64,000 nt of DNA from Candidatus Dormiibacterota bacterium (GCA_035534695.1 DATLRN010000043.1:31-64030), one strand, 5' to 3'. Counted from the stretch's first letter, positions 2,540-14,721 are shown. The notes: a model not told the origin generated them from the sequence alone. Program-made: numbers and translations.

Positions 2540-3016
2540 CCCGCACACGATAACGGCTGAGGGTAAGCCCGTCGTTGGGCGAACTGGCCAGAGGCCATGC
2601 CCATACATCTTCACCTTCGCCCAGGGACCTTGGAGTGGGCTCTCGGCGTACCGCAGGGCGCTGAAGCTGCTTGGATACGCTCCGCAAGCCGCGCCGCCCG
2701 GCCAGTGGCCGTCCTGGTGGTCATGGCCGCTGGTCGACACCTGGGGCCAGCAAATGGTCGACGGCGCCCAGCGAACTTCGCGGCTCTACACGACCGCTTG
2801 GGTCCGTCGCTACGTGGCTAGCTGGAGAGCTCGATACGGCCAGAGCAGGATTACCCTGGTCGTCGACGCCCAATGGCTGGATCGCATCGGCGAGGCCCAG
2901 CCGACCTTCGCGGTCCCTCGCCAGAGGGATGGAAGAAGCCAGCGGGCGCGCCCGCCTACTTTCCGTGTCGCGGTTGAGCCCTATGCGCCCCACGAACTGG
3001 CCTGGCTCGGACGCGG

Positions 3017-3502
3017 CTAACCTCGCAGAACCCACATCTCGCGGTCGCTGGCGAAAACTGCTACTGCCAATCCGAACACACCCAGGTCCCGGGCTACGAT
3101 GTCGGAGACGCCTCCGGTGAAGGAGAGTGATAGGACTATCTCGAGGAGCAGCAGGGCGCTGACCCCAGCCGCCAGTCGAGCGGCGACACCGAGCACCAGC
3201 GCTACCCCCAAGACGGAGAGAAGCCAGCCGTGCAGCAGCACCATGGCCAGTGCGAGGTGCGACGTCTGGGAGATGATTGGTACATAGCCGGTCCACTGAC
3301 TAGGTTGGAACAACTCGTGCATTCCGAACCAGAGCAGGACCAGCCCGAGGGAGACGCGCGCAGCGGTTGGTGCCCAAGCACGGACCGTTTCAACGGGGTT
3401 AGCACCAGCGGCACGGGCATCCATCTCTGGGCGAGCAGTGACTACGGCGGTCCCGCCTCGGGCGGCGAGTCTGTGCGCTCGGTTTCTTCGCGCCATGTTC
3501 AC
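3017..3502 (-). CDS. DoxX-family membrane protein
   Basis: SLGLVLLWFGMHELFQPSQWTGYVP...LLHGWLLSVLGVALVLGVAARLAAGVSALLLLEIV is the typical DoxX TM pattern. The start overlaps the stop of the upstream ORF by 4 nt. The true start may be an internal Met. Confidence 0.7.
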   Translation of the reverse strand: MNMARRNRAHRLAARGGTAVVTARPEMDARAAGANPVETVRAWAPTAARVSLGLVLLWFGMHELFQPSQWTGYVPIISQTSHLALAMVLLHGWLLSVLGVALVLGVAARLAAGVSALLLLEIVLSLSFTGGVSDIVARDLGVFGLAVAVFASDREMWVLRG

Positions 3503-4047
3503 TGCACCACATGGCCGGAGGCATCGGTCACCACCACGCCGTCGTCGCCGAAGCTGTACTCGGTATCGCCCGAGTCGTCGCCCAGGTTGGCCTCGATAAA
3601 GTAGACGCGGTCCGTCGCGGGATAGGTATTGCTGCGCACTGACTGAGTACTCCCGGAGGCATATAGGGTGAACTCCACGGAGCTCCCGGAAAGCCGGGTA
3701 GTGTAGGTGAATCCTGCCAACGCCTGGCGAGTGCTAGGGCTGGGACTCCCAGGGTAGAGCTGGTAGGTGTACGAGGCGTACGGCGTCGATGACAGCAGCG
3801 GCCCGGGAGTCCCGGACGCTCTCGGAGTCGCCGATGGCGAGGCCGCAGCGCTCGGACTCGCCTTGGGGGTCCCCCCTGAAGTATTCGCACTCGGACTGCC
3901 GTGCCCCGTCGAGATCCCGCCCGATCCGCCGACAACCAGGGACCCGGGATTGCTATAGCCGTGAACGGCCAGCAGGGCGGCGGCTACCGCGGCCACCGAC
4001 ACTGCGAGCCCGCCGCGCCGACCGACCGTGTCACCTGCGATTCGCAC
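3499..4047 (-). CDS. Membrane-anchored or secreted protein of unknown function (N-terminal signal anchor, Ser/Pro/Gly linker, beta-rich C-terminal domain)
   Basis: MRIAGDTVGRRGGLAVSVAAVAAALLAVHG is a signal anchor. It is followed by a low-complexity linker and then YTYQLYPGSPSPSTRQALAGFTYTTRLSGSSVEFTLYASGSTQSV...YFIEANLGDDSGDTEYSFGDDGVVVTDASGHVV. The ORF is translationally coupled to the DoxX gene. Confidence 0.55.
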   Translation of the reverse strand: MRIAGDTVGRRGGLAVSVAAVAAALLAVHGYSNPGSLVVGGSGGISTGHGSPSANTSGGTPKASPSAAASPSATPRASGTPGPLLSSTPYASYTYQLYPGSPSPSTRQALAGFTYTTRLSGSSVEFTLYASGSTQSVRSNTYPATDRVYFIEANLGDDSGDTEYSFGDDGVVVTDASGHVVQ

Positions 4048-4923
4048 CTGGCAGATCCTCCTGGGCTCCCCGGGCAGATGATAACGGCAGACCGCGAAGC
4101 TTTCGGCGAGGCGCCCGTCTGTGGCACTGTAACGGGCCCTGGCGCTTGAGCCGCGAGGTTGGACGCTGGACCAGTGCGGCTCCCGGAGCCTTCCGGGCCA
4201 GCCTCCGGCGGTTCGTTAGGCTCAGAGGTCTCTGAGGGCGACCTCGAGTGCTCCGCTTCGGGGCTAGGATCTTTGGGTGGATTGCCGTGCGAGGCTTTGG
4301 ACTGTCGGAGCGCTCGCACTTCTGACTGCGACCATGATCGCTGGATCTGGCGCACCCGCCTTGCAGCGGACCAAGGTGACTCCACGCATTGCGCCGCCGG
4401 TGCCCCGCCGCCCGGCACCGACGTAGACGCGATCGCTACCTCCCCGGCCGCCCTGTTTAGCCACCAGCTCGCCCTGTGGCCGTATGGGGCGCGGTGGTCC
4501 GTCTTATCACTGGCACGGGTGACCGGGGCGGGGGTGGTGTCAATTTCGGGGCGCGGTAGGTGAGCGGAGTCGTCGGCGGAGTGAATAGGCGCTGCCCGGC
4601 GCTCGCCAGCTAGGACGCGGCCTCGGTTCCCAGGTGCTGGCTCAGATCTCTTGGCGATGCGCACGCTGACATGGTCGTAGATCACGATCGGTATCCTCAC
4701 TGTGAGGAACAGGGTAAGTGGAACCCGCTGCGGGGCACGGCTTGCCGCGTCGAGCACATCCACATGGCCCCGCGTGGGCAGCGGGTCATGTCATCCAGAC
4801 TCCCACGTTCAATTCTGGCTGACGGCGCTGGCGGCTCCTGGGGGACCAGTTGACTACGGTGCTAGAAAGCGGGCGGACGACCGCTGGGTACGAGCCAACG
4901 TAGGGGTCAACCCCGGGTGTCCG

Positions 4924-4957: not shown

Positions 4958-5195
4958 GTGGTATACCGCTGGAACTAGCGATCCCCGGCGGTAACTGGCG
5001 AGAAAGACTGACATCCCTTCTGGCCCGAACACGGCGACTTCCTGTGCCGCCACTTTGTGCGAAGCCGGGACTCGCTACAGGAACGTGGCTCAACTGGCTT
5101 GGAGTTCGAAGACGTGGCTTCTAGCCCACCAAGCCACAGTCACCTGTAAGGGAGTCCTCATCCGACTCCCAGGTTGATATTAGACCCTGGCTAAC

Positions 5196-5462
5196 ATGAC
5201 AAACACTGGCCGAGACGCCGTCGCACGCCGGGCTGCCGGAACAGCCTTGGTTAGCCGTCTGACCAAGTTGGGCGGAGTTGCTGCGATAGTCGCAGTTGGA
5301 GCGAGCGCCGCCGTAGTGGCTCACTCCCTGCCCGGCAGGTCAGCCCCGAGTGTAAGTCGCGTCAGTGGCTCTGCCCCGTCAACGTCCGCGCCCTTGGCCC
5401 CAATACCCGGTGGATCAACTAGTGCTCCTTCCGTTCCGGCCGTTACCTCGGGAGGCTCATGA
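5196..5462 (+). CDS. Small single-pass membrane peptide with a Ser/Pro-rich tail; first gene of the ApbE operon
   Basis: The 88-aa product is MTNTGRDAVARRAAGTALVSRLTKLGG, then TM VAAIVAVGASAAVVAHSL, then PGRSAPSVSRVSGSAPSTSAPLAPIPGGSTSAPSVPAVTSGGS. Its stop TGA (5460-5462) overlaps the apbE ATG (5459) in ATGA, and a GGGAGG SD for apbE lies inside its 3' end. Confidence 0.5.
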   Translation: MTNTGRDAVARRAAGTALVSRLTKLGGVAAIVAVGASAAVVAHSLPGRSAPSVSRVSGSAPSTSAPLAPIPGGSTSAPSVPAVTSGGS

Positions 5463-6463
5463 CGAGTGACTCACCGTGGCTTCCAATGCCCGCCCCCGAC
5501 CAAATGGCCTCCGCCAAGCGGGCCGCCTTCGGTTCCACCGCCCAGGTCGTAGCCCATCCCTCGGGGGTGCTCCCGGATGTCCTTCCCCTCGTGGACGCGG
5601 AGATCCTAGCGCTAGACATGACTGCCAGCCGATTCAGACGCGACTCTGAGTTAGACCAGCTCAACCGATCACTGGCAGCCGAGGTCATGGTGGGACCCCT
5701 GCTGGCGCAGCTGCTGAGGCTGGCGCTCCACTGGGCCGAGCGGTCCTCCGGGCTCCTCGATCCTTGTGTCGGCGCTGCAGTCATCGCCAACGGTTACGAG
5801 GGCGACTTTTCCGGTATGGCAAAGGACGGTCCTGGTCTGGTTCGACAGGCGCCGTGTGGGTTGAGCTGGAAGTCGGTCACGATCAGTGGCCAGACCGTAC
5901 GCCGACCTCCGGGGCTGGTGCTTGACCTCGGGGCGACGGCCAAGGCCTGGGGCGCCGACCAGATGGCCTCCGTGGCTGCTCAGACCGGAGCATCGGTGCT
6001 GGTGAGTCTCGGGGGCGATCTGGCCACCAGCGGACCGGAGCCTCCCGGGGGTTGGGTAGTGCGCATAGCCGACGACCACGAAGCGAGTGCACGCTCTCCC
6101 GGGCAGACGGTACGCCTGCGGGCACGGGCGCTAGCTACCTCTTCGGTGACGAGGCGCAGGTGGCGGCGGGCCGGAGTTGAGCTACATCACATCATCGATC
6201 CGCAGACGGGAGCTCCAGCGCAGGGACCTTGGCGGACAGTGAGTGTGGCCGCCGAATTGTGTTCAGAAGCCAATGCGACGGCCACCAGTGCGATCGTGGC
6301 GGGCGACGGAGCGGTGGGCTTCCTGGCGCCGTTTGGACTACCCGCGCGTCTCGTTTCCAGAGACGCGCAAGTCTTGCACTTTGGCGGTTGGCCCAGCGAC
6401 GGAGACGACCTGTCCCAGATCACGAGTTGGATGCGTGCACCAGTCGCGGGAGCGGCCCCGTGA
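5459..6463 (+). CDS. apbE: FAD:protein FMN transferase (ApbE family)
   Basis: The N-terminus FGSTAQVV...VDAEILALDMTASRFRRDSELDQLN and the core LDLGATAKAWGADQ...SLGGDLA...ALATSS...HHIIDPQTG are ApbE hallmarks. No obvious signal peptide or lipobox is present. Confidence 0.85.
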   Translation: MTSDSPWLPMPAPDQMASAKRAAFGSTAQVVAHPSGVLPDVLPLVDAEILALDMTASRFRRDSELDQLNRSLAAEVMVGPLLAQLLRLALHWAERSSGLLDPCVGAAVIANGYEGDFSGMAKDGPGLVRQAPCGLSWKSVTISGQTVRRPPGLVLDLGATAKAWGADQMASVAAQTGASVLVSLGGDLATSGPEPPGGWVVRIADDHEASARSPGQTVRLRARALATSSVTRRRWRRAGVELHHIIDPQTGAPAQGPWRTVSVAAELCSEANATATSAIVAGDGAVGFLAPFGLPARLVSRDAQVLHFGGWPSDGDDLSQITSWMRAPVAGAAP

Positions 6464-7590
6464 GCCTTGCCGTAGCAGCAACCGGTCCTTCAGCGCTCTG
6501 GTATCTCACCCGCGGCAGCGGACTGATTCTGCTGGTGATACTCACGGCGAGCGTTGCCATGGGGATTCTTCACAAGAGCGGCTGGACACCGTCGGGGTGG
6601 CCCCGCTTCGTCATGGGCGATCTCCATCGGAACCTGGCGCTCCTAGGCGCGGCACTGTTGGTGGTCCACATCATCACGGCCGAGCTTGACCCGTTTGCTC
6701 CCGTCGGCTGGCTCGCAGTTTTACTGCCCTTCCTATCCTCCTACCGTCCCGTCTGGCTCGGGCTGGGAACGCTGAGCGTCGACCTCTTGATTGCAGTTGT
6801 TACAACCAGTCTGCTCCGTTCCCACTTGAGTCTCCAAATGTGGAGGCTGGTCCACTGGTTCACCTACCTCGCCTGGCCGTTCGCCTTTCTTCACTCCCTC
6901 GGAACTGGCACCGACACTCGCCTGGGGTGGGCCTTTCTTCTCGATCTGCTGTGCCTAGCCGTCGTGGTGGGGGTGACCCTCTATCGAGTCTGGCGTCTCT
7001 CTGCGGTTACGCGCCTGTTGAAATGGTCGACGGTGGGCGTGGCTGGCGGTGCTGTGCTTGCGCTCACAGTCTTCGCTGCGGTCGGCCCACTGCAGGCGGG
7101 TTGGGCCCGGTCCGCCGGCACTCCGCTATCCCTGCTGGCGAAGAGTGGGGGTAGCGGTGCATCGAGCGCCGCACCAAGCCAGAGTGGGCAGCTGGCTCAT
7201 TTCGCAGGGACCTTCAGCGGCACGCTGGTTCCTCAGCAAACGGGCGCAGCGACCTCGATCGCGATCTCCGGGACTGTTCGTGGGGCACCGGGGGGAACGC
7301 TCACCGTGACGATAACGGGAGATCCGTTGCCCAGTGGAGGATTCAATGTGGCGTCGGGCACTGCGACCTTTCGGAGCGCCTCGACTGGACGCACCTACAG
7401 GGGGCAGCTGGCGGCTCTGTCGGGAGATGCGATGACCTTCAGTCTCGACGAAGGCGATGGCCAGTCGGTGGGTCTTCAGCTCAACCTCCAAGAAGCTAAT
7501 CAGGGTCCAGTTTCCGGGACCGTGGTGGTCGGCGGCGTGAAGACTCCCACACCCGCTACCGGATCAAGCGCGTCGAACGAGTCCGAGTGA
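6460..7590 (+). CDS. Ferric-reductase-like (YedZ/MsrQ-type, haem b) transmembrane protein with an extra Gly/Ser/Thr-rich C-terminal domain
   Basis: GTG 6460 overlaps the apbE stop in GTGA. ALWYLTRGSGLILLVILTASV..., conserved His-bearing helices (DLHRNLALLGAALLVVHI and VHWFTYLAWPFAFLHSLG), about six TM segments, and then ~170 aa (…KSGGSGASSAAPSQSG…TLTVTITGDPLPSGGFNVASGTATFRS…). The upstream 77 codons of ORF 6229 overlap apbE and are discounted. Confidence 0.8.
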   Translation: MSLAVAATGPSALWYLTRGSGLILLVILTASVAMGILHKSGWTPSGWPRFVMGDLHRNLALLGAALLVVHIITAELDPFAPVGWLAVLLPFLSSYRPVWLGLGTLSVDLLIAVVTTSLLRSHLSLQMWRLVHWFTYLAWPFAFLHSLGTGTDTRLGWAFLLDLLCLAVVVGVTLYRVWRLSAVTRLLKWSTVGVAGGAVLALTVFAAVGPLQAGWARSAGTPLSLLAKSGGSGASSAAPSQSGQLAHFAGTFSGTLVPQQTGAATSIAISGTVRGAPGGTLTVTITGDPLPSGGFNVASGTATFRSASTGRTYRGQLAALSGDAMTFSLDEGDGQSVGLQLNLQEANQGPVSGTVVVGGVKTPTPATGSSASNESE

Positions 7591-8915
7591 ACCTGGCCAC
7601 TGCCGCCACCGATACGGACCTGGCAGTCAGGGGTGGGGTTCTCGGGTCTCCCCGGCTGCTGGCCGGTCCTGGAGGAGACATCACCGAGTCGCTAGCGTCG
7701 CACCTGGATCGGCTGGGCGACCCACTTGGTGCGGTCGGGACGACAGCTCCCCGGGAACTCATTCAGAGGATCCGCGCATCCGGTCTGCGAGGTCGTGGGG
7801 GCGGGGGTTTCCCAGTAGGCGAGAAGTTGGCGGTCGTGGCTGCCGGTGCAGGAGTCGGGAATCGGGCAGTCGTGGTCGCGAACGCATCCGAGAGTGAGCC
7901 CGCCAGTGCCAAGGACCGCTTCCTTCTCTCGGTGCGCCCGCACCTGGTCATCGACGGCATCGAGGTCGCCGCCAGGGCGGTCGGAGTTAGACAGGCCTAC
8001 ATCTGCGTGAGCCAGCGATCCGAGCACGCGGTGTTCGCCCTGCGACAGGCCTTGCTGGAGAGGCGGGAGGCGCGGCTGCTGCCGGTGCCCATCGAGGTGG
8101 TTCTGGCCGCTCCGACCTTCGTTGGGGGAGATGAAACGGCTCTCTTGAACTGGATCGCCGGGGGCGCTCCCAGCCCCACGGTGGTGCCTCCCCTACCTGC
8201 CCATAAAGGCCTCACCGGCCGTCCCACCCTGGTGCAGAATGCTGAGTCGCTGGCTCATCTCGCGCTGATCGCACGCTTTGGGCCGGGTTGGTTCCGTCGC
8301 GTCGGGACCGAGGAGGAGCCTGGCACGATGCTGGTGACGGTCAGCGGCTGCGTGACCAGTGCGGGGGTATATGAGACGCCCATCGGGACCCACCTCGAGG
8401 ATGTCCTGGAGGCGAGCGGGTGGTCTGTCGAAACCGAAGTCATCTTGGTCGGGGGATATTTCGGAAGTTGGGTCAGAAGACAGGACGCCCGCGAGATGTC
8501 GCTGTCTCGGGCGAGCCTGGCATCATGCGGCGCCTCGCCCGGAGCCGGAGTGATTCTCGCCCTGCCGAAATCGGCTTGCGGCGTCAAGGAGACGGCCGAA
8601 GTTGTCGACTGGCTTTCCGCCGAGAGTTCCGGACAGTGCGGCCCCTGTGTCCATGGACTTTCATCGGTGGCAGCCTGCCTCGCCCAGCTGGCGTCGCCGG
8701 CCTCGGCCCGTCGAGCGGACCTGGGCCGCCTGTTGCGCTGGTGCGCCGAGATCGAAGGCCGGGGCGCCTGCCGGCATCCCGATGGCGTCATCAAGTTGGT
8801 CCGCAGTTGCCTGCAGGTGTTCGCCACCGAGGTGGAGGCACACCGAAGCGGACGCTGCTTAGGTTCCTTCGAAGGATGGCTTCCGCTCCCGGCAACCACG
8901 CAGCAAGTCCGATGA
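7587..8915 (+). CDS. NuoF-like NADH/FMN-binding iron-sulfur protein (Complex1_51K + SLBB + NADH_4Fe-4S architecture), soluble
   Basis: GLRGRGGGGFPVGEKL corresponds to the NuoF NADH/FMN glycine-rich motif. AESSGQCGPCVHG ... GRGACRHPDG corresponds to the NuoF N3 cluster region. GTG 7587 overlaps the upstream stop in GTGA. Confidence 0.85.
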   Translation: MNLATAATDTDLAVRGGVLGSPRLLAGPGGDITESLASHLDRLGDPLGAVGTTAPRELIQRIRASGLRGRGGGGFPVGEKLAVVAAGAGVGNRAVVVANASESEPASAKDRFLLSVRPHLVIDGIEVAARAVGVRQAYICVSQRSEHAVFALRQALLERREARLLPVPIEVVLAAPTFVGGDETALLNWIAGGAPSPTVVPPLPAHKGLTGRPTLVQNAESLAHLALIARFGPGWFRRVGTEEEPGTMLVTVSGCVTSAGVYETPIGTHLEDVLEASGWSVETEVILVGGYFGSWVRRQDAREMSLSRASLASCGASPGAGVILALPKSACGVKETAEVVDWLSAESSGQCGPCVHGLSSVAACLAQLASPASARRADLGRLLRWCAEIEGRGACRHPDGVIKLVRSCLQVFATEVEAHRSGRCLGSFEGWLPLPATTQQVR

Positions 8916-9154
8916 AGAGCCTCTACCTGCACGTGAACCCCATCACATGCGCCGGGCACGGGCTCTGCGCCGAGCTTCTGCCTGAGGCGGTACGACTGGA
9001 CGACTGGGGCTATCCCATAGTGGACCCATCGCCCGTTTCCCCACGTATCCAGGGTCACGCGCGCCGAGCCGTGGCAGCGTGCCCCACCCTTGCTCTCGCC
9101 TTGCGCAGCGCCCCCGCTCGGGGAGTCACCTCGCCGCAACGTGGCGAATCGTGA
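8912..9154 (+). CDS. Small ferredoxin (single-cluster CxxHxxC...CP type)
   Basis: MKSLYLHVNPITCAGHGLCAELLPEAVRLDDWGYPIV...RRAVAACPTLAL. ATG 8912 overlaps the NuoF-like stop in ATGA. Confidence 0.75.
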   Translation: MKSLYLHVNPITCAGHGLCAELLPEAVRLDDWGYPIVDPSPVSPRIQGHARRAVAACPTLALALRSAPARGVTSPQRGES

Positions 9155-9250
9155 TCAAGCCGGAGACAACGGTGGAGCGCCTCCGTGCTCCAGCACCAGC
9201 CTCACCGCCCGCTCCCGCAGCCCCTGCGGGTACCGCGTCGTGCTTGTCAT
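9155..9250 (-). mobile_element. IS3-family transposase OrfA N-terminal stub (~31 codons), truncated
   Basis: MTSTTRYPQGLRERAVRLVLEHGG resembles the HTH start of IS3/IS911-type OrfA (…EFRERAVRLV.E…). The reading frame dies after 31 codons, exactly at the 3' end of the ferredoxin gene. No remainder of the IS is present. Confidence 0.45.
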
Positions 9251-10463: not shown

Positions 10464-11825
10464 GTGCGCGTTCCGCTGCGAGACGAGGGTGCGCTGCGTG
10501 TCCTTGAGGATGTGAGTGGAGTGAAACCGGTGGCGCTCTCTGCCTGGACGGTAACCGCACGTACCTTTAGCGCGCTCGGAAATCGCAACTACCGGCTCTT
10601 CTTCCTCGGACAGACTGTTTCCCTAACAGGCAGCTGGCTGCAGTCTACGGCTCAAGCGTGGCTGATCCTAGAACTAACGCATTCTGCACTCATCCTAGGT
10701 CTCCTGCTGACCGTGCAATTCGTCCCAAATCTCTTGCTCCAGCCATTCGGCGGCGTGGTCGCCGACCGTTGGCCGAAGCGACGCCTCCTCATTCTCACCC
10801 AGAGCTGCTTCGCAATTACGGCCGCGACCCTCGGTATCACCGAGGCTCTCCATCTGGCCAGCGTCTGGGAGGTTTTTGTGGTTGTCGCCACTTTCGGAGT
10901 GATCAACGTTGTGGACGGGCCGGCCCGTCAGGCGTTCGTACCCGAGATGGTCGGAAAGCGGCGAATGCCCAACGCTGTCGCCCTCAATTCGATGGTCTTC
11001 AACGGTGCTCGCGTGGTAGGCCCAGCAGTGGGCGGGGTTCTGATCGCTACCGTTGGCACTGCCGTCTGCTTTGAGCTCAATGCAATCTCTTACCTGGCGG
11101 TGATAGCAGGACTGATTTTGATGCGACCGGCGGAACTCCACCCTAACCAGCGCTTGGAAGGAGGGGTGGCGGCAGTGCTTACCCAAGTCCGGGAGGCTGT
11201 CGGATACGTCCGGCGCACCCCTGAGGTCAAGCTTGTGATCGTTCTCATGGCCGTTGTCGGTACCTTCTCCTTCAACCTCACCATCCTGATCACCGCAATC
11301 GCCCGAACTGGGTTGCACGCCGGAGCGGGTGGCTTTGGGCTCCTCAGTGCCGCGCTCGGCGCGGGCGCACTGATTGGCGCAATCGGGGTGGCATATGCCA
11401 GCCGTGCCTCGATACGAGGGCTGTTGATCGGCTGCGCCGTGTTCGGTCTCTTCCTAGCGCTGGCCGGTCAAGCACCTGGGATGGCCGTCGCCATGGCCCT
11501 CCTCGCCCTAGCGGGCGGTGGGATGATCACCTATAGTGCCATGTCCAATAGCGTGGTGCAGACGTTTACACCAGGGGCTTTGCGGGGCCGCGTAATGTCG
11601 CTCTACCTGTGGGTCTTCCTCGGATCAACCCCGTTCGGGAGCTTACTCTTCGGAGGAATCGAGCAGGCGTGGGGTAGCCGCCTAGCTACGGCGCTGAGTG
11701 GCTCGGCGGCGGTGTTGGCTGCGCTGGCAGGCGCCTGGTGGTGGGCTCGAACTGCCCGCTCCCGAAGGACCTATTCAGGCGGGTCACCGCCCGCCGAACC
11801 TATGATCGCCACCGCTGAGCGGTAA
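10464..11825 (+). CDS. MFS transporter (EntS/MFS_3-like, 12 TM)
   Basis: FSALGNRNYRLFFLGQTVSLTGSWLQSTAQAWLIL...GGVVADRWPKRRLL... is typical of the enterobactin-exporter-like MFS subfamily. The true start is probably a GTG near 10521-10530 rather than 10464. Confidence 0.8.
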   Translation: MRVPLRDEGALRVLEDVSGVKPVALSAWTVTARTFSALGNRNYRLFFLGQTVSLTGSWLQSTAQAWLILELTHSALILGLLLTVQFVPNLLLQPFGGVVADRWPKRRLLILTQSCFAITAATLGITEALHLASVWEVFVVVATFGVINVVDGPARQAFVPEMVGKRRMPNAVALNSMVFNGARVVGPAVGGVLIATVGTAVCFELNAISYLAVIAGLILMRPAELHPNQRLEGGVAAVLTQVREAVGYVRRTPEVKLVIVLMAVVGTFSFNLTILITAIARTGLHAGAGGFGLLSAALGAGALIGAIGVAYASRASIRGLLIGCAVFGLFLALAGQAPGMAVAMALLALAGGGMITYSAMSNSVVQTFTPGALRGRVMSLYLWVFLGSTPFGSLLFGGIEQAWGSRLATALSGSAAVLAALAGAWWWARTARSRRTYSGGSPPAEPMIATAER

Positions 11826-12035: not shown

Positions 12036-12776
12036 CTACGAGCTCAGCGACACGGTTGCGGGCTGATCACCTGCGCTGGTCTCTAGACGGCTGTGCGGAT
12101 CAAGGGTTCGTGAATCCGCCTGGGCGGCGGCGACCGCGTTGCGGACGCGGAGTCGGGCGTCTTCCACGTGTTGGGCGACGTGTTCCTGCGCGGTGTCAAC
12201 ATCGTGTTCAAGAATCGCATCCATGATGTGCTGATGATGGGACACCTCGATTGCCATAGGATGCAGAGTTCGGGTGGTGATGTTGACCAACATCCGCAAC
12301 TTGCCCGCTACGTTCTCACGCCAGACTCGGACTAAAAGGTCGTCGCCAGTGAGCTCATAAATAGTGTCATGGAAAGACAGATCTGCCAGTGCCATGCGCA
12401 AGGGATCGGCCATCTCAGCCGCGTCACGAACCTGGCGCCAGGCCCGCTCCAACGCTCTCTCCTTGCTGGGCTCAGCAGCCTTGATTAGCCGTTCGACGGC
12501 GTGCGTCTCAAGTACGTTCCGTAGCCGGTAGAGCTCATCGATGCCTTTGGTAGTGAACTCTACGACGTACCGACCCCGTCGAGGGACATTGAGGATCAGG
12601 CCATCCTTCTCCAAGAGTGCCATGGCCTCGCGGAGGGGTCCCCGGCTGATCCCCATTTCTTGCGCCAGGGTGGCTTCAACGAGTCTATCTCCACCCGCAA
12701 AGCGACCGGCGAGAATGGACGTGCGCAAGGCCTCGAGCGCACTGGCGCCAAGTGTCTCGGAAGGCACTCGGGCCAT
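12036..12776 (-). CDS. GntR/FadR-family transcriptional regulator (wHTH + FCD domain)
   Basis: LEALRTSILAGRFAGGDRLVEATLAQEMGISRGPLREAMALLEKDGLILNVPRRGRYV is the GntR HTH, followed by a helical FCD-like domain. The start is taken at the ATG (cat 12774-12776); 12809 is the alternative. Confidence 0.85.
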   Translation of the reverse strand: MARVPSETLGASALEALRTSILAGRFAGGDRLVEATLAQEMGISRGPLREAMALLEKDGLILNVPRRGRYVVEFTTKGIDELYRLRNVLETHAVERLIKAAEPSKERALERAWRQVRDAAEMADPLRMALADLSFHDTIYELTGDDLLVRVWRENVAGKLRMLVNITTRTLHPMAIEVSHHQHIMDAILEHDVDTAQEHVAQHVEDARLRVRNAVAAAQADSRTLDPHSRLETSAGDQPATVSLSS

Positions 12777-12856
12777 CCGTCTGCTCTGTCGCTGACCCGA
12801 AGCTACCACTCTAGGCCCCCTCGTAAGTACCGTGTCGACTATTCCTCATCTGCGCA

Positions 12857-13783
12857 CTAGCGGCGCTGCAGCCGAACCTCAAACGCGTCACGGAGACCAT
12901 CCCCGATGAAGTTGAAAGCCACGACGACCAGGACGATGCAGACACCAGCGGGCCAGATCTGCCACCAGTACCCGCTGTAGACGTAGTTCACGCCGTCGGA
13001 CAGCATACCTCCCCAGTTGGCGGCTGGCGGCGGAATGCCCAAACCAAGAAAGCTGAGTGATGTTACCGCCAAGACAGCGTCGGCAACTTGAAAGGTTGAG
13101 TTGACCGCGACCGTACCAAAGACGTTTGGAATGACATGGCGGAAGATGATGCGCAGTGGTCCCGCTCCCTGTCCCTGGGCTGCCTCCACAAAGTTCCGTG
13201 TTTTGAGGGATAGCGTCTCGGCCCGGACCAGTCGGGAGGGGACCAGCCATGCGACCGACGCAATCACCACGATGAGGAGAGGCTCCGATGGGGAGAAGAT
13301 GCTGGAAAGGAACAGCAGAAGAAAGAGGGTGGGTATAGCGAGCAATGCATCCACCGCTCTCATCATCACCCCGTCCACCAATCCGCCCGCGAAGCCGGCT
13401 ATGGCCCCCCAAGCCACACCCATGCTGGTCGCCAGCAGAGAAACAACGAGTCCGACTACTAACGTGGTTTGGCCCCCCACCATCAGTCTTCCGAGCAGGT
13501 CGTAACCTACGGTGTCGGTGCCGAGCGGGTGGTGCAGGCTGGGCCCTTCGTTCTCGATGCCGAGTCGGGTCTGCACCTGGTTGGTGTGATAGAGGACGGG
13601 ACCGACAAAACAGAAGAGGATGAAGAAGGCGACTACAAAAAGCCCCACCAGGGCCAGGCGATTCTCGGTGAACACGGCCACCGCCAAGCGGAATGCGCCG
13701 CCTGAGCTGTGGATCTCACCCGCATCTGCCGCAGACTCGGCGCCGAGCGAACGGGGTGGTTCGATCGGGATCCCACCCGTCAT
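12857..13783 (-). CDS. ABC transporter permease, DppC/OppC-like (peptide/opine/nickel family)
   Basis: HPLGTDTVGYDLLGRLMVGGQTTL..., AVDALLAIPTLFLLL, and the EAA-like loop VEAAQGQGAGPLRIIFRHVIPN. ATG 13783 overlaps the dppB-like stop in ATGA. Confidence 0.85.
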   Translation of the reverse strand: MTGGIPIEPPRSLGAESAADAGEIHSSGGAFRLAVAVFTENRLALVGLFVVAFFILFCFVGPVLYHTNQVQTRLGIENEGPSLHHPLGTDTVGYDLLGRLMVGGQTTLVVGLVVSLLATSMGVAWGAIAGFAGGLVDGVMMRAVDALLAIPTLFLLLFLSSIFSPSEPLLIVVIASVAWLVPSRLVRAETLSLKTRNFVEAAQGQGAGPLRIIFRHVIPNVFGTVAVNSTFQVADAVLAVTSLSFLGLGIPPPAANWGGMLSDGVNYVYSGYWWQIWPAGVCIVLVVVAFNFIGDGLRDAFEVRLQRR

Positions 13784-14721
13784 GAGTATCGTATCCGGGG
13801 ATCGAAGACTGCGTAGAGGATGTCTGCGAGCAAGGAGCCGATGACCACCGCCACGCCAACCACGATGGTGGTTCCGAGCATCACCGGAAAGTCCTCGGTC
13901 TGGGCGGCATTCCAAAACAGAAGCCCCATTCCCGGGTAGTTGAAGACGGACTCAACGATCAACGCGCCACTGAGGATGCCGGGCAAGCTTAGGCCGATCA
14001 GAGTGACGATGGGGAGCATGGCGTTGGGCAAGACATGGCGGAAGAGGATGACCCGCCTACTCACGCCTTTGGAGTCGGCGGTGCGGACGTAGTCCTGCAC
14101 CAAGTTTTCAAGAACTGAAGAGCGCATGTAGCGACTGAACAATGCGATCGTGATGAGCGTCAGCGTCAGTACGGGTAGGACCAGATTGGGAATCTGCTGC
14201 CAGAGGGGGCTGGTGGCGGTGGGGCCGAGGGGGGGGAAGAAGGGCAGCACCTGGCTGAGGAGGATGATCAGGATGGTGCCCAGAAAGAAGCTGGGCATGG
14301 AGTAGAAAATGAAGGAAAAGCCCGTCAGAACGTAGTCCTCAGGCTTGTTGCGACGAACCGCTTGGTAGACCCCGGCAGGGATCGCCACCATGATCGCCAG
14401 GGCCGTGGAGACCCCAACCAGGGCGAGGGTTCGGGGCACGTTCTCGCTGAGCAGCGAGTCGACACTCTGGTTCAGCTTGTAGGAGAAGCCGAGGTTCCCG
14501 TGCAGCAGCTGATTCACCCAGTCGACGTACTGGACGGGCAAAGGCTGGAGCAGCCCGAACTTTATGTCGAAGGCGGCAATCTGAGCTTTATTGGCGCGCA
14601 GTCCCAGGGCGGCTTTGGCGGGACCGCCAGGGAGTAGGTGAAGCAGGATGAAAGTGATGATCGTGACGCCCAGCAGGACGGCGATCGCCTGGAGGAGCCG
14701 TCTGAGGAGAAATGCTTGCAT
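13780..14721 (-). CDS. ABC transporter permease, DppB/OppB-like
   Basis: MQAFLLRRLLQAIAVLLGVTIITFILLHLLPGGP..., YVRTADSKGVSRRVILFRHVLPNAMLPIVT. Confidence 0.9.
   Translation of the reverse strand: MQAFLLRRLLQAIAVLLGVTIITFILLHLLPGGPAKAALGLRANKAQIAAFDIKFGLLQPLPVQYVDWVNQLLHGNLGFSYKLNQSVDSLLSENVPRTLALVGVSTALAIMVAIPAGVYQAVRRNKPEDYVLTGFSFIFYSMPSFFLGTILIILLSQVLPFFPPLGPTATSPLWQQIPNLVLPVLTLTLITIALFSRYMRSSVLENLVQDYVRTADSKGVSRRVILFRHVLPNAMLPIVTLIGLSLPGILSGALIVESVFNYPGMGLLFWNAAQTEDFPVMLGTTIVVGVAVVIGSLLADILYAVFDPRIRYS

Follow-up and report, generated by a model that had tools for sequence, protein, structure and literature searches.

What does a flavin transferase modify in an operon that encodes none of the domains expected to receive its flavin? 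The question is raised by five genes within a 64,000-nucleotide stretch of DNA from a Candidatus Dormiibacterota bacterium (GCA_035534695.1 DATLRN010000043.1:31-64030; the whole stretch is called the window here), which specify a small protein, an ApbE-family enzyme transferring flavin mononucleotide (FMN), a six-helix membrane protein of the MsrQ/STEAP kind, a soluble NuoF-like flavoprotein and a ferredoxin (Table 1). An earlier reading, made from the sequence alone (the sequence-only reading), had seen here a transmembrane electron-transfer module without an FMN_bind acceptor, and this absence is confirmed by Pfam profiles, which give no FMN_bind match at E ≤ 0.1 in any of the five products. 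The answer we favour is that the small protein itself would be the acceptor: the operon would form a conduit from NAD(P)H to the outside of the cell, with a natural C-terminal flavin-tag peptide as its carrier. Judged from conservation and homology, we give this whole chain a probability of about 0.5; the NAD(P)H-driven, haem-b transmembrane electron conduit itself is, in our view, quite probable.

That the five genes form a unit can be read directly in the sequence, where five same-strand open reading frames (ORFs) are chained, as the sequence-only reading had stated, by four start/stop overlaps of 4 nt (ATGA at 5459, GTGA at 6460, GTGA at 7587 and ATGA at 8912). Searches from three independent entry points, namely the membrane protein, the NuoF-like protein and the small protein, gathered 16 distinct related loci from Dormibacterota, Acidimicrobiales, Mycobacteriales and unclassified metagenome-assembled genomes (MAGs), and the full order of small ORF, apbE, MsrQ-like, NuoF-like and ferredoxin gene recurs in most of them. 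Gene order is kept across phyla, far beyond chance, and the synteny on which the sequence-only reading had made its proposal depend is thus borne out. Its placing of the host in Actinomycetota did not stand, a 100% identical protein being known from a Candidatus Dormibacterota MAG; the system itself does extend into Actinomycetota. Among the loci examined, none carries an FMN_bind gene in place of the small gene in an otherwise similar operon.

The small gene is present in all 16 loci. In 13 of them apbE lies directly 3′ of it, usually with overlapping stop and start codons, and in the others the small gene precedes the MsrQ-like gene instead. Its product always has the same anatomy: a basic n-region that includes an invariant Arg is followed by an uncharged helix of ~20 residues, by a small-x-small site and [LF]-P-G-[HKR], the −3/−1 rule being obeyed in 148 of 166 members, and by a low-complexity Ala/Pro/Ser/Thr linker of highly variable length (44-137 residues for linker and C-terminal motif together). 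Invariant residues of the window protein are R12, P46, G47, S85, G86, G87 and S88. The C-terminal VTSGGS, one of two acceptor candidates named in the sequence-only reading, is the one feature besides the signal-anchor that is invariant across phyla, and this candidate is strongly supported. A profile search of 1.84 billion representatives returned 1300 clusters at E ≤ 1e-3 and 249 at E ≤ 1e-10 (counted at 50% identity). Among 146 new top matches, the C-terminus is SGGS in 131, SGAS in three and TGGS in two, the other 10 appearing truncated or frameshifted. In a C-terminal logo of 158 members, V (86%) at position −6 is followed by V, S or T, then by S (99%), G (100%), G (98%) or A (2%) and a terminal S-COOH. 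Members ending in SGAS belong to the same operon type (L015) or stand directly before a ferric-reductase gene (L014).

What is conserved here is protein. Glycine codon pairs differ across loci (GGA GGC, GGG GGC, GGC GGC, GGC GGG, GGC GGA, GGT GGA and GGA GGT), from which we conclude that selection acts on the protein rather than on the DNA and that a mere Shine-Dalgarno constraint is excluded; the SGGS motif is also retained without an overlapping start codon in L005 and L011. Compared with its 90% identical relative in L001, the small ORF shows 17 synonymous and nine non-synonymous codon differences, third positions dominating. Among 31 members tested, no Pfam or NCBIfam family was matched, nor any folded flavin-binding domain (FMN_bind, DUF2271, DUF3570, Flavodoxin_4 or FMN_red); names of members in their source records, where given (for some only), are always 'hypothetical protein', and full-text searches of the literature found no description of the protein. 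The family is without annotation in part because automatic gene calling overlooks the small ORF: upstream of apbE in L008, L010, L012 and L016, it was missed or an opposite-strand ORF was called.

ApbE enzymes recognise D-x-x-[S/T]-G-A-[S/T], attaching FMN to its final residue; a stretch of seven residues is enough, protein termini are the best positions, replacement of the Asp by Ala has a minor effect, Ser is accepted and cytosolic ApbEs are known (PMC12052999). In FMN_red proteins, flavinylation motifs sit on unstructured C-terminal extensions (PMC11334425). The SGAS variants of the small protein match the canonical ApbE motif, [S/T]-G-A-[S/T], exactly, and the alignments of the MsrQ-like protein, the NuoF-like protein and the ferredoxin contain no other conserved [ST]G[AG][ST] motif. 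On account of the overlap with apbE, the likeness of the motif, the SGAS-ending members and the lack of a rival conserved motif, the C-terminal Ser of the gene 1 product appears to be the most likely flavinylation site.

The charge bias around the helix (means of +3.0 for the N flank and +1.2 for the C flank; N exceeds C in 123 of 158 members) predicts that the small protein is oriented N-in, C-out. Linker composition and the cleavage-like site likewise suggest an extracytoplasmic fate, Pro/Ser/Thr/Ala-rich linkers being typical of extracytoplasmic tethers. Export through the Tat pathway was considered and dropped, a strict Tat motif occurring in just 11 of 166 members. Also discarded was a programmed frameshift or readthrough fusing the small protein to ApbE: no slippery site is present, the arrangement as two ORFs at a −1 offset is conserved, and the gene order differs in L005, L011 and L014. 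An actinobacterial subgroup (P0122-P0146 and others; L005 5640-5969) has a His/Arg-rich stretch in the linker, for instance HSHHHHHHH or RRHRRHRKHHH, and then a conserved LQPPAQPP. At least five His are found in the tail of 56 of 158 members, and such a His-rich linker may constitute a metal-binding site beside the proposed flavin.

The neighbouring transferase matches PF02424 with E 7e-46 (157 bits against a cut-off of 25.6), and its best relatives in the PDB are T. pallidum and other ApbE/Ftp structures. HH[IL][IV]DP (HHIIDP in the window) and the Phe of SRFRxDS are kept in all nine orthologues aligned to T. pallidum Ftp. In E. coli, Y60 is the FAD-stacking residue (FAD, flavin adenine dinucleotide) and D280 and T284 are ligands of metal site 1 (PMC4767422); a Phe at the stacking position assigns the operon's enzyme to the transferase rather than the pyrophosphatase type. 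The Thr ligand of the metal site is likewise retained in nine of nine. The GT motif that opens the ApbE domain is preceded by 0-25 residues in the nine orthologues (23 in the window, none in L010, whose called start is the GT motif), with no hydrophobic stretch among them.

Electrons would reach an exported flavin through the gene 3 product. This protein has no Pfam match of its own, falling below the threshold for PF01794 (Ferric_reduct), which 19 of 24 homologues do match. An AF2 model built from 106 homologues (predicted local distance difference test, pLDDT, 85.6) has six transmembrane (TM) helices, a disordered linker and an eight-stranded up-and-down beta-barrel, and Foldseek relates the TM part to STEAP2 (probability 1.0) and STEAP1 (0.98). 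H56 and H70 on TM2 and H132 and H145 on TM4, the helices being taken from the model, are invariant in the 106 sequences; two His pairs spaced by 12-14 residues on two TM helices are the di-haem pattern of ferric reductases, and we infer that the protein binds two b haems. Loop net charge (mean K+R over the same sequences) puts loops 1, 3 and 5 inside, at +2.2, +3.7 and +3.1, and predicts an outside location for the N-terminus and loops 2 and 4, and with them for the barrel. The topology equals NOX helices 2-6 with one extra C-terminal helix. The outer face bears invariant motifs, including GPLxxGWAxxAGTP after TM6; the A-G-T-P was rejected as an acceptor, its residue order differing from G-A-T, and could possibly be a docking or phosphate-binding site.

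The extra domain that the sequence-only reading had noticed on the membrane protein does exist, as a folded barrel rather than the merely Gly/Ser/Thr-rich region it was taken for. Modelled alone, it reaches a pLDDT of 87.7, and its fold matches (PyrI4, PloI4, a DUF3224-like protein, nitrobindin and streptavidin) have TM-scores of ~0.5 with E-values that are not significant. No Pfam family covers it in the window protein or in the homologues tested. A divergent FMN_bind domain is ruled out, the barrel being all-beta, eight-stranded and calycin-like, with no Pfam match.

On the donor side, the gene 4 product matches PF01512 (E 2e-32), PF10589 (E 8e-15) and, weakly, SLBB, possesses the FMN/NADH loop GLRGRGGGGFP and aligns end to end with HydB (7p5h_B) and Nqo1 (2fug_1) at E 1e-51 to 1e-53. 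Against the NuoF equivalog TIGR01959 it scores 241 bits, the cut-off being 558.65, and no NuoE partner is encoded in the operon. Its Fe-S motif is SxxCxxC...C-x-HPDG, not CxxCxxC...C: in all 10 orthologues aligned, Ser or Ala stands where the canonical N3 motif has its first Cys, and the four invariant Cys occupy non-canonical positions. The product is best described as NuoF-like and not as a NuoF; of the motifs claimed for it earlier, the NADH/FMN loop was recovered and the NuoF-type Fe-S motif proved non-canonical. Residues ~345-395 (window ~8620-8770) include the invariant C-x-HPDG and an upstream invariant Cys (xxCG), which may together complete the cluster. The G-[AG]-[ST]-x-G-x-G of this protein was rejected as a flavinylation site, as it is the ordinary GSGG loop of HydB/NuoF, has no leading S/T and reads GAAL in L013. 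The ferredoxin matches Fer4_15 (E 6e-9, 36.9 bits against a cut-off of 22.4), keeps CxxHxxC...CP invariant in nine orthologues and has M. tuberculosis ferredoxin 8amp_A as its closest structure. The identities given to the five products in the sequence-only reading are upheld.

The order of electron flow proposed in that reading, from NAD(P)H via the NuoF-like protein, the ferredoxin and two b haems to a flavinylated acceptor, fits the anatomy of the operon. By homology, the NuoF-like flavoprotein would oxidise NAD(P)H in the cytoplasm and send single electrons via its Fe-S cluster to the ferredoxin, which would reduce the inner haem of the six-TM STEAP/NOX-type protein, and electrons would then cross the membrane to the outer haem. 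The flavin carrier would be the gene 1 product, which begins with a signal, either an anchor or cleavable (AxA↓LPG), and continues through a disordered linker of 40-130 residues to V-x-S-G-(G/A)-S-COOH, mimicking [S/T]-G-A-[S/T]. Because ApbE lacks a signal peptide and the tail is predicted to be outside, flavinylation may precede export: the enzyme, translationally coupled to gene 1, would esterify FMN onto the terminal Ser in the cytoplasm, using cytoplasmic FAD, and the modified short protein would then be exported post-translationally ('modify, then export'). Outside, the tethered or released flavin would accept electrons from the outer haem, perhaps docking at the GWAxxAGTP of the conserved outer face or inside the calycin-like barrel, and would hand them to a further acceptor, for which the His-rich linkers of the actinobacterial subgroup suggest a metal ion. 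The export of the modified peptide is the step we would propose with less confidence than the chain as a whole; SecYEG has been reported to pass side-chain adducts of FMN-like size.

Several observations weigh against this scheme. An adjacent ApbE is absent in three of the 16 loci (L005, L011 and L014), the barrel is missing in L012 and L015 and the ferredoxin in L012, from which it follows that barrel and ferredoxin are not obligatory parts. The metal-site-1 Asp of ApbE (E. coli D280, T. pallidum D284) is Asn in nine of nine aligned orthologues, a clade-specific change; the chemistry may differ as a consequence, and Asn could still ligate the metal. As the sequence-only reading had noted for the window, ApbE has no signal peptide, and this is so in all 12 orthologues whose N-terminus was examined (nine aligned, L016 and L017 read, and L015 checked from coordinates). 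The motif of the small protein is SGGS, not SGAS, in ~98% of members (SGAS in ~2%), its leading Asp is replaced by P or V, and a hydrophobic V stands at −6/−5; the ApbE literature searched contains no report on tolerance of an Ala-to-Gly change in the motif. Lastly, we know of no precedent among ApbE substrates for export of a pre-flavinylated tail. An opposite placement of the C-terminal domain and ApbE, which the sequence-only reading regarded as fatal, is indeed predicted (barrel out, ApbE in), but it does not eliminate a peptide acceptor, since the small protein would pass through the cytoplasm before export and is thereby left as a possible acceptor.

Many of these points are shared by an alternative in which the small protein is never flavinylated and serves only as a subunit that supports the structure or assembly of the di-haem protein, with a TM helix that packs on the MsrQ-like protein and a C-terminus that binds a partner, while the signal-less ApbE acts in the cytoplasm on another target, for instance an unlinked protein, or handles flavin for the NuoF-like protein. 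The cytoplasmic ApbE (by sequence), the three loci that pair the small protein with the MsrQ-like gene and no adjacent ApbE, the departure of the motif from SGAT and the Asp-to-Asn change, which hints at altered ApbE activity, would all suit it. Against it, the other operon products offer no alternative conserved flavinylation motif, the SGAS variants fit the canonical motif exactly, no two genes of the operon are more tightly linked than the small gene and apbE, whose stop and start codons overlap in 13 of 16 loci, and the Phe at the FAD-stacking position is of the transferase type (PMC4767422). We consider such a subunit role unlikely, though well worth keeping in mind.

A different sidedness would place the flavinylated tail in the cytoplasm (N-out, C-in), where it would be a tethered mediator of one or two electrons between the NuoF-like protein or the ferredoxin and the inner haem, in place of the FAD of NOX and STEAP proteins, the barrel alone serving the acceptor outside. 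Such an arrangement would suit the cytoplasmic ApbE and need no export step, the Arg/His-rich linkers of the actinobacterial subgroup would be hard to export, and the NOX and STEAP relatives do use a flavin below the inner haem. However, the N flank of the helix is the more positive one in most members, the cleavage-like site (AxA↓xPG) after the helix is conserved, the linkers are of the composition usual for extracytoplasmic tethers, and the ferredoxin is able to reduce haem directly, all of which makes a cytoplasmic tail improbable.

The acceptor candidate that the sequence-only reading had named first, the SGAS within KSGGSGASS (S235/S236) just past TM6 of the MsrQ-like protein, does match [ST]GA[ST] in the window, but it lies in a linker of variable length with pLDDT < 50 and is absent or different in nearly all homologues, including those 73-78% identical (GGGATS); it was rejected, and its chance of being the acceptor is very slight. 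That the small ORF is no gene at all, its GGS-stop being explained by the need of apbE for a GGAGG ribosome-binding site and an ATGA overlap (the window ends GGA GGC TCA TGA, with GGAGG 5 nt before the apbE ATG), is scarcely credible given the other Gly codons used elsewhere, the motif kept without an overlapping start in L005 and L011, the N-terminal helix and xPG conserved across phyla, the dominance of third-position substitutions and the 1300 profile clusters.

The preferred reading, with the small protein as flavin carrier, has to be set against systems already described. Meheust et al. (2021, eLife, PMC8238504) described bioinformatically 1797 'MsrQ-like' flavinylation clusters, mostly from Actinobacteria, of which 31 have a NuoF-like gene. 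The operon belongs to this catalogued 'MsrQ-like, flavinylation-associated' kind, and the earlier claim that the system is uncharacterised as a class therefore has to be given up. Both have apbE beside the gene for a six-TM di-haem protein of PF01794 and a donor in the cytosol that binds NAD(P)H, and in both the flow is proposed to run from the cytosol through the haems to a flavinylated extracytosolic acceptor. Unlike those clusters, the operon has no FMN_bind, DUF2271 or DUF3570 gene and has a domain-less protein with C-terminal SGGS in that place; its ApbE is without signal peptide or lipobox and has Asn at the metal ligand position; its cytochrome is fused to a calycin-like barrel, not to an FNR-type NAD domain; and its donor is a pair of NuoF-like protein and ferredoxin. 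To be retained in that study, a cluster had to show a predicted signal peptide or lipidation site, either on ApbE or on a known substrate domain (PMC8238504). With a signal-less ApbE, the operon would be admitted by this rule only if the small protein were counted as a signal-bearing target, which it is not. Genomes with orphan apbE genes were taken in the same study to imply ApbE substrates yet to be recognised (PMC8238504).

A close parallel to the small protein is an engineered one. In the 'Flavin-tag', a synthetic DxxSGAT (Tong et al. 2021, reviewed in PMC12052999), a short unstructured terminal peptide with the motif is enough for ApbE and the C-terminal position is best, and in FMN_red proteins the motif is on a disordered C-terminal tail (PMC11334425). 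Those FMN_red tails fold back on their own flavin-binding domain, whereas gene 1 would be a whole natural protein of signal, linker and tag, with SGGS and with the putative modified Ser as the last residue. The Listeria monocytogenes locus (Ndh2, EetA/B, PplA and FmnB) likewise moves NADH electrons to an extracytosolic, ApbE-flavinylated, membrane-tethered carrier in a monoderm, but it employs a quinone pool and EetA/B instead of a di-haem protein, and its PplA is lipid-anchored and contains two folded FMN_bind domains; FmnB is extracytosolic and requires exported FAD (PMC9973259). With NOX, FRE and STEAP proteins and with E. coli MsrQ and Fre the operon shares two His pairs on two helices, NAD(P)H electrons arriving from the cytoplasmic side and the STEAP fold; it differs in having a separate NuoF-like protein and ferredoxin as donor, not a fused FNR/F420-type domain or free reduced flavin. 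Compared with NOX, its membrane protein has no TM1 equivalent and an extra C-terminal helix that puts the C-terminal domain outside; compared with MsrQ, no MsrP partner is present in the operon. Complex I NuoF/Nqo1 and HydB share with the NuoF-like protein an FMN/NADH glycine loop, an SLBB domain and a C-terminal Fe-S domain of four helices; from complex I NuoF the gene 4 product departs in its score below the equivalog cut-off, the missing NuoE and the replaced first N3 Cys.

Table 1. Features of the operon and of related loci; nucleotide positions refer to the window unless a locus is named
Feature	Position	Strand	Remarks
Putative conserved leader or promoter region	5111-5195	+	5′ boundary of the cassette common to close relatives (blastn)
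Gene 1, small protein	5196-5462	+	88 aa; proposed flavin carrier
Gene 1, hydrophobic helix	residues 25-44, nt 5268-5327	+	follows basic n-region
Gene 1, A-x-S↓LPGR cleavage-like site	nt 5328-5339	+	
Gene 1, C-terminal VTSGGS	nt 5442-5459	+	preceded by disordered S/P/A/T linker
Gene 2, ApbE-family FAD:protein FMN transferase	5459-6463	+	334 aa; PF02424; start overlaps gene 1 stop
ApbE N272	6272-6274	+	Asn at metal-site-1 Asp position; orthologues in L001-L013 alike
Gene 3, MsrQ/STEAP-like six-TM protein, inferred di-haem, with beta-barrel	6460-7590	+	376 aa from GTG; AF2, Foldseek
Gene 3, TM domain	residues 12-208, nt 6493-7083	+	AF2
Gene 3, invariant post-TM6 GPLxxGWAxxAGTP	residues 209-222, nt 7084-7125	+	outer face (predicted)
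Gene 3, variable linker KSGGSGASS	residues 228-236, nt 7141-7167	+	pLDDT < 50
Gene 3, eight-stranded beta-barrel	residues 248-357, nt 7201-7530	+	AF2
Gene 4, soluble NuoF-like flavoprotein, putatively NAD(P)H-oxidising	7587-8915	+	442 aa; PF01512, PF10589
Gene 5, single-cluster ferredoxin, CxxHxxC...CP	8912-9154	+	80 aa; Fer4_15
Two-component genes beside the operon in relatives	L004 3879-4592; L005 3443-5556; L008/L009 2457-4638; L010 2478-4612; L015 1962-4243		candidate operon regulators

The borders of the operon are sharp. In blastn comparisons, homology to L001 (91%), L002 and L003 begins at 5111-5133 and ends at 9148, and the flanks are unlike; against L001, the homology is confined to 5111-9148. 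Since homology stops at the operon borders and the flanking genes are unlike, the five genes behave as a discrete cassette, moved or retained. In L002, genes upstream (window 3015-4088) are still syntenic. Around the operon we found no sigma-70 consensus, promoter, terminator or Rfam match, and the regions upstream of it in the various loci showed no shared box for an iron or redox regulator. A short string, CTCATCCGAC, occurs ~35-45 nt 5′ of the small-gene start in the window (~5153-5162), L002 and L017, too few loci for a motif. An OmpR-type response regulator and a HAMP/HisKA kinase adjoin the operon in five of the 16 loci, not in the window, and are candidate regulators of it. In two actinobacterial loci (L005 8869-10497; L008/L009 8653-9924) a gene resembling NAGPA (phosphodiester glycosidase) follows 3′ of the ferredoxin gene, with weak Pfam matches.

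In the window, the ferredoxin stop is abutted by a 31-residue N-terminal fragment that resembles the helix-turn-helix part of an IS3-type transposase (MTSTTRYPQGLRERAVRLVLEHGG; 9158-9250, minus strand) and aligns with the first 24 positions of PF01527 at E 0.069 only. Further downstream lie an MFS_3 transporter (10464-11825, plus strand), a GntR/FCD regulator (12036-12809, minus strand) and an Opp-type permease (12857-13915, minus strand); relatives do not keep these genes beside the operon, with which they probably have no connection.

To our knowledge, known ApbE substrates all bear the flavin on a folded domain, and those of the envelope are modified after export. Gene 1 may found an unrecognised class of ApbE substrate, a ribosomally made, domain-less 'flavopeptide' (signal, disordered tether and C-terminal Ser-O-FMN) that would be flavinylated in the cytoplasm by the signal-less ApbE, exported, possibly released by signal peptidase and used as a tethered or diffusible shuttle for electrons from the outer haem of the MsrQ-like cytochrome across the cell envelope; we put this proposal forward tentatively, at somewhat less than even odds. 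Should the small protein turn out not to receive a flavin, the operon would count as an ordinary representative of a class already catalogued. If it is flavinylated, its whole make-up would be a signal plus a flexible tether ending in a flavin tag, which would make it the minimal flavinylated electron carrier, and the His-rich linker of the actinobacterial subgroup could set a metal ion beside the flavin. Cytoplasmic modification followed by export would need no FAD exporter and would sidestep the question of how FAD reaches an extracytosolic ApbE, and the SGGS tag with its cognate enzyme would be a natural pair for protein labelling. Such carriers would also explain some of the genomes in which Meheust et al. 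noted an 'orphan apbE'. With ~1300 clusters at 50% identity, the family is found in abundant, mostly uncultured soil lineages, namely Dormibacterota, Acidimicrobiia and other Actinomycetota, in which it would represent a common, unannotated route for moving NAD(P)H electrons outside the cell.

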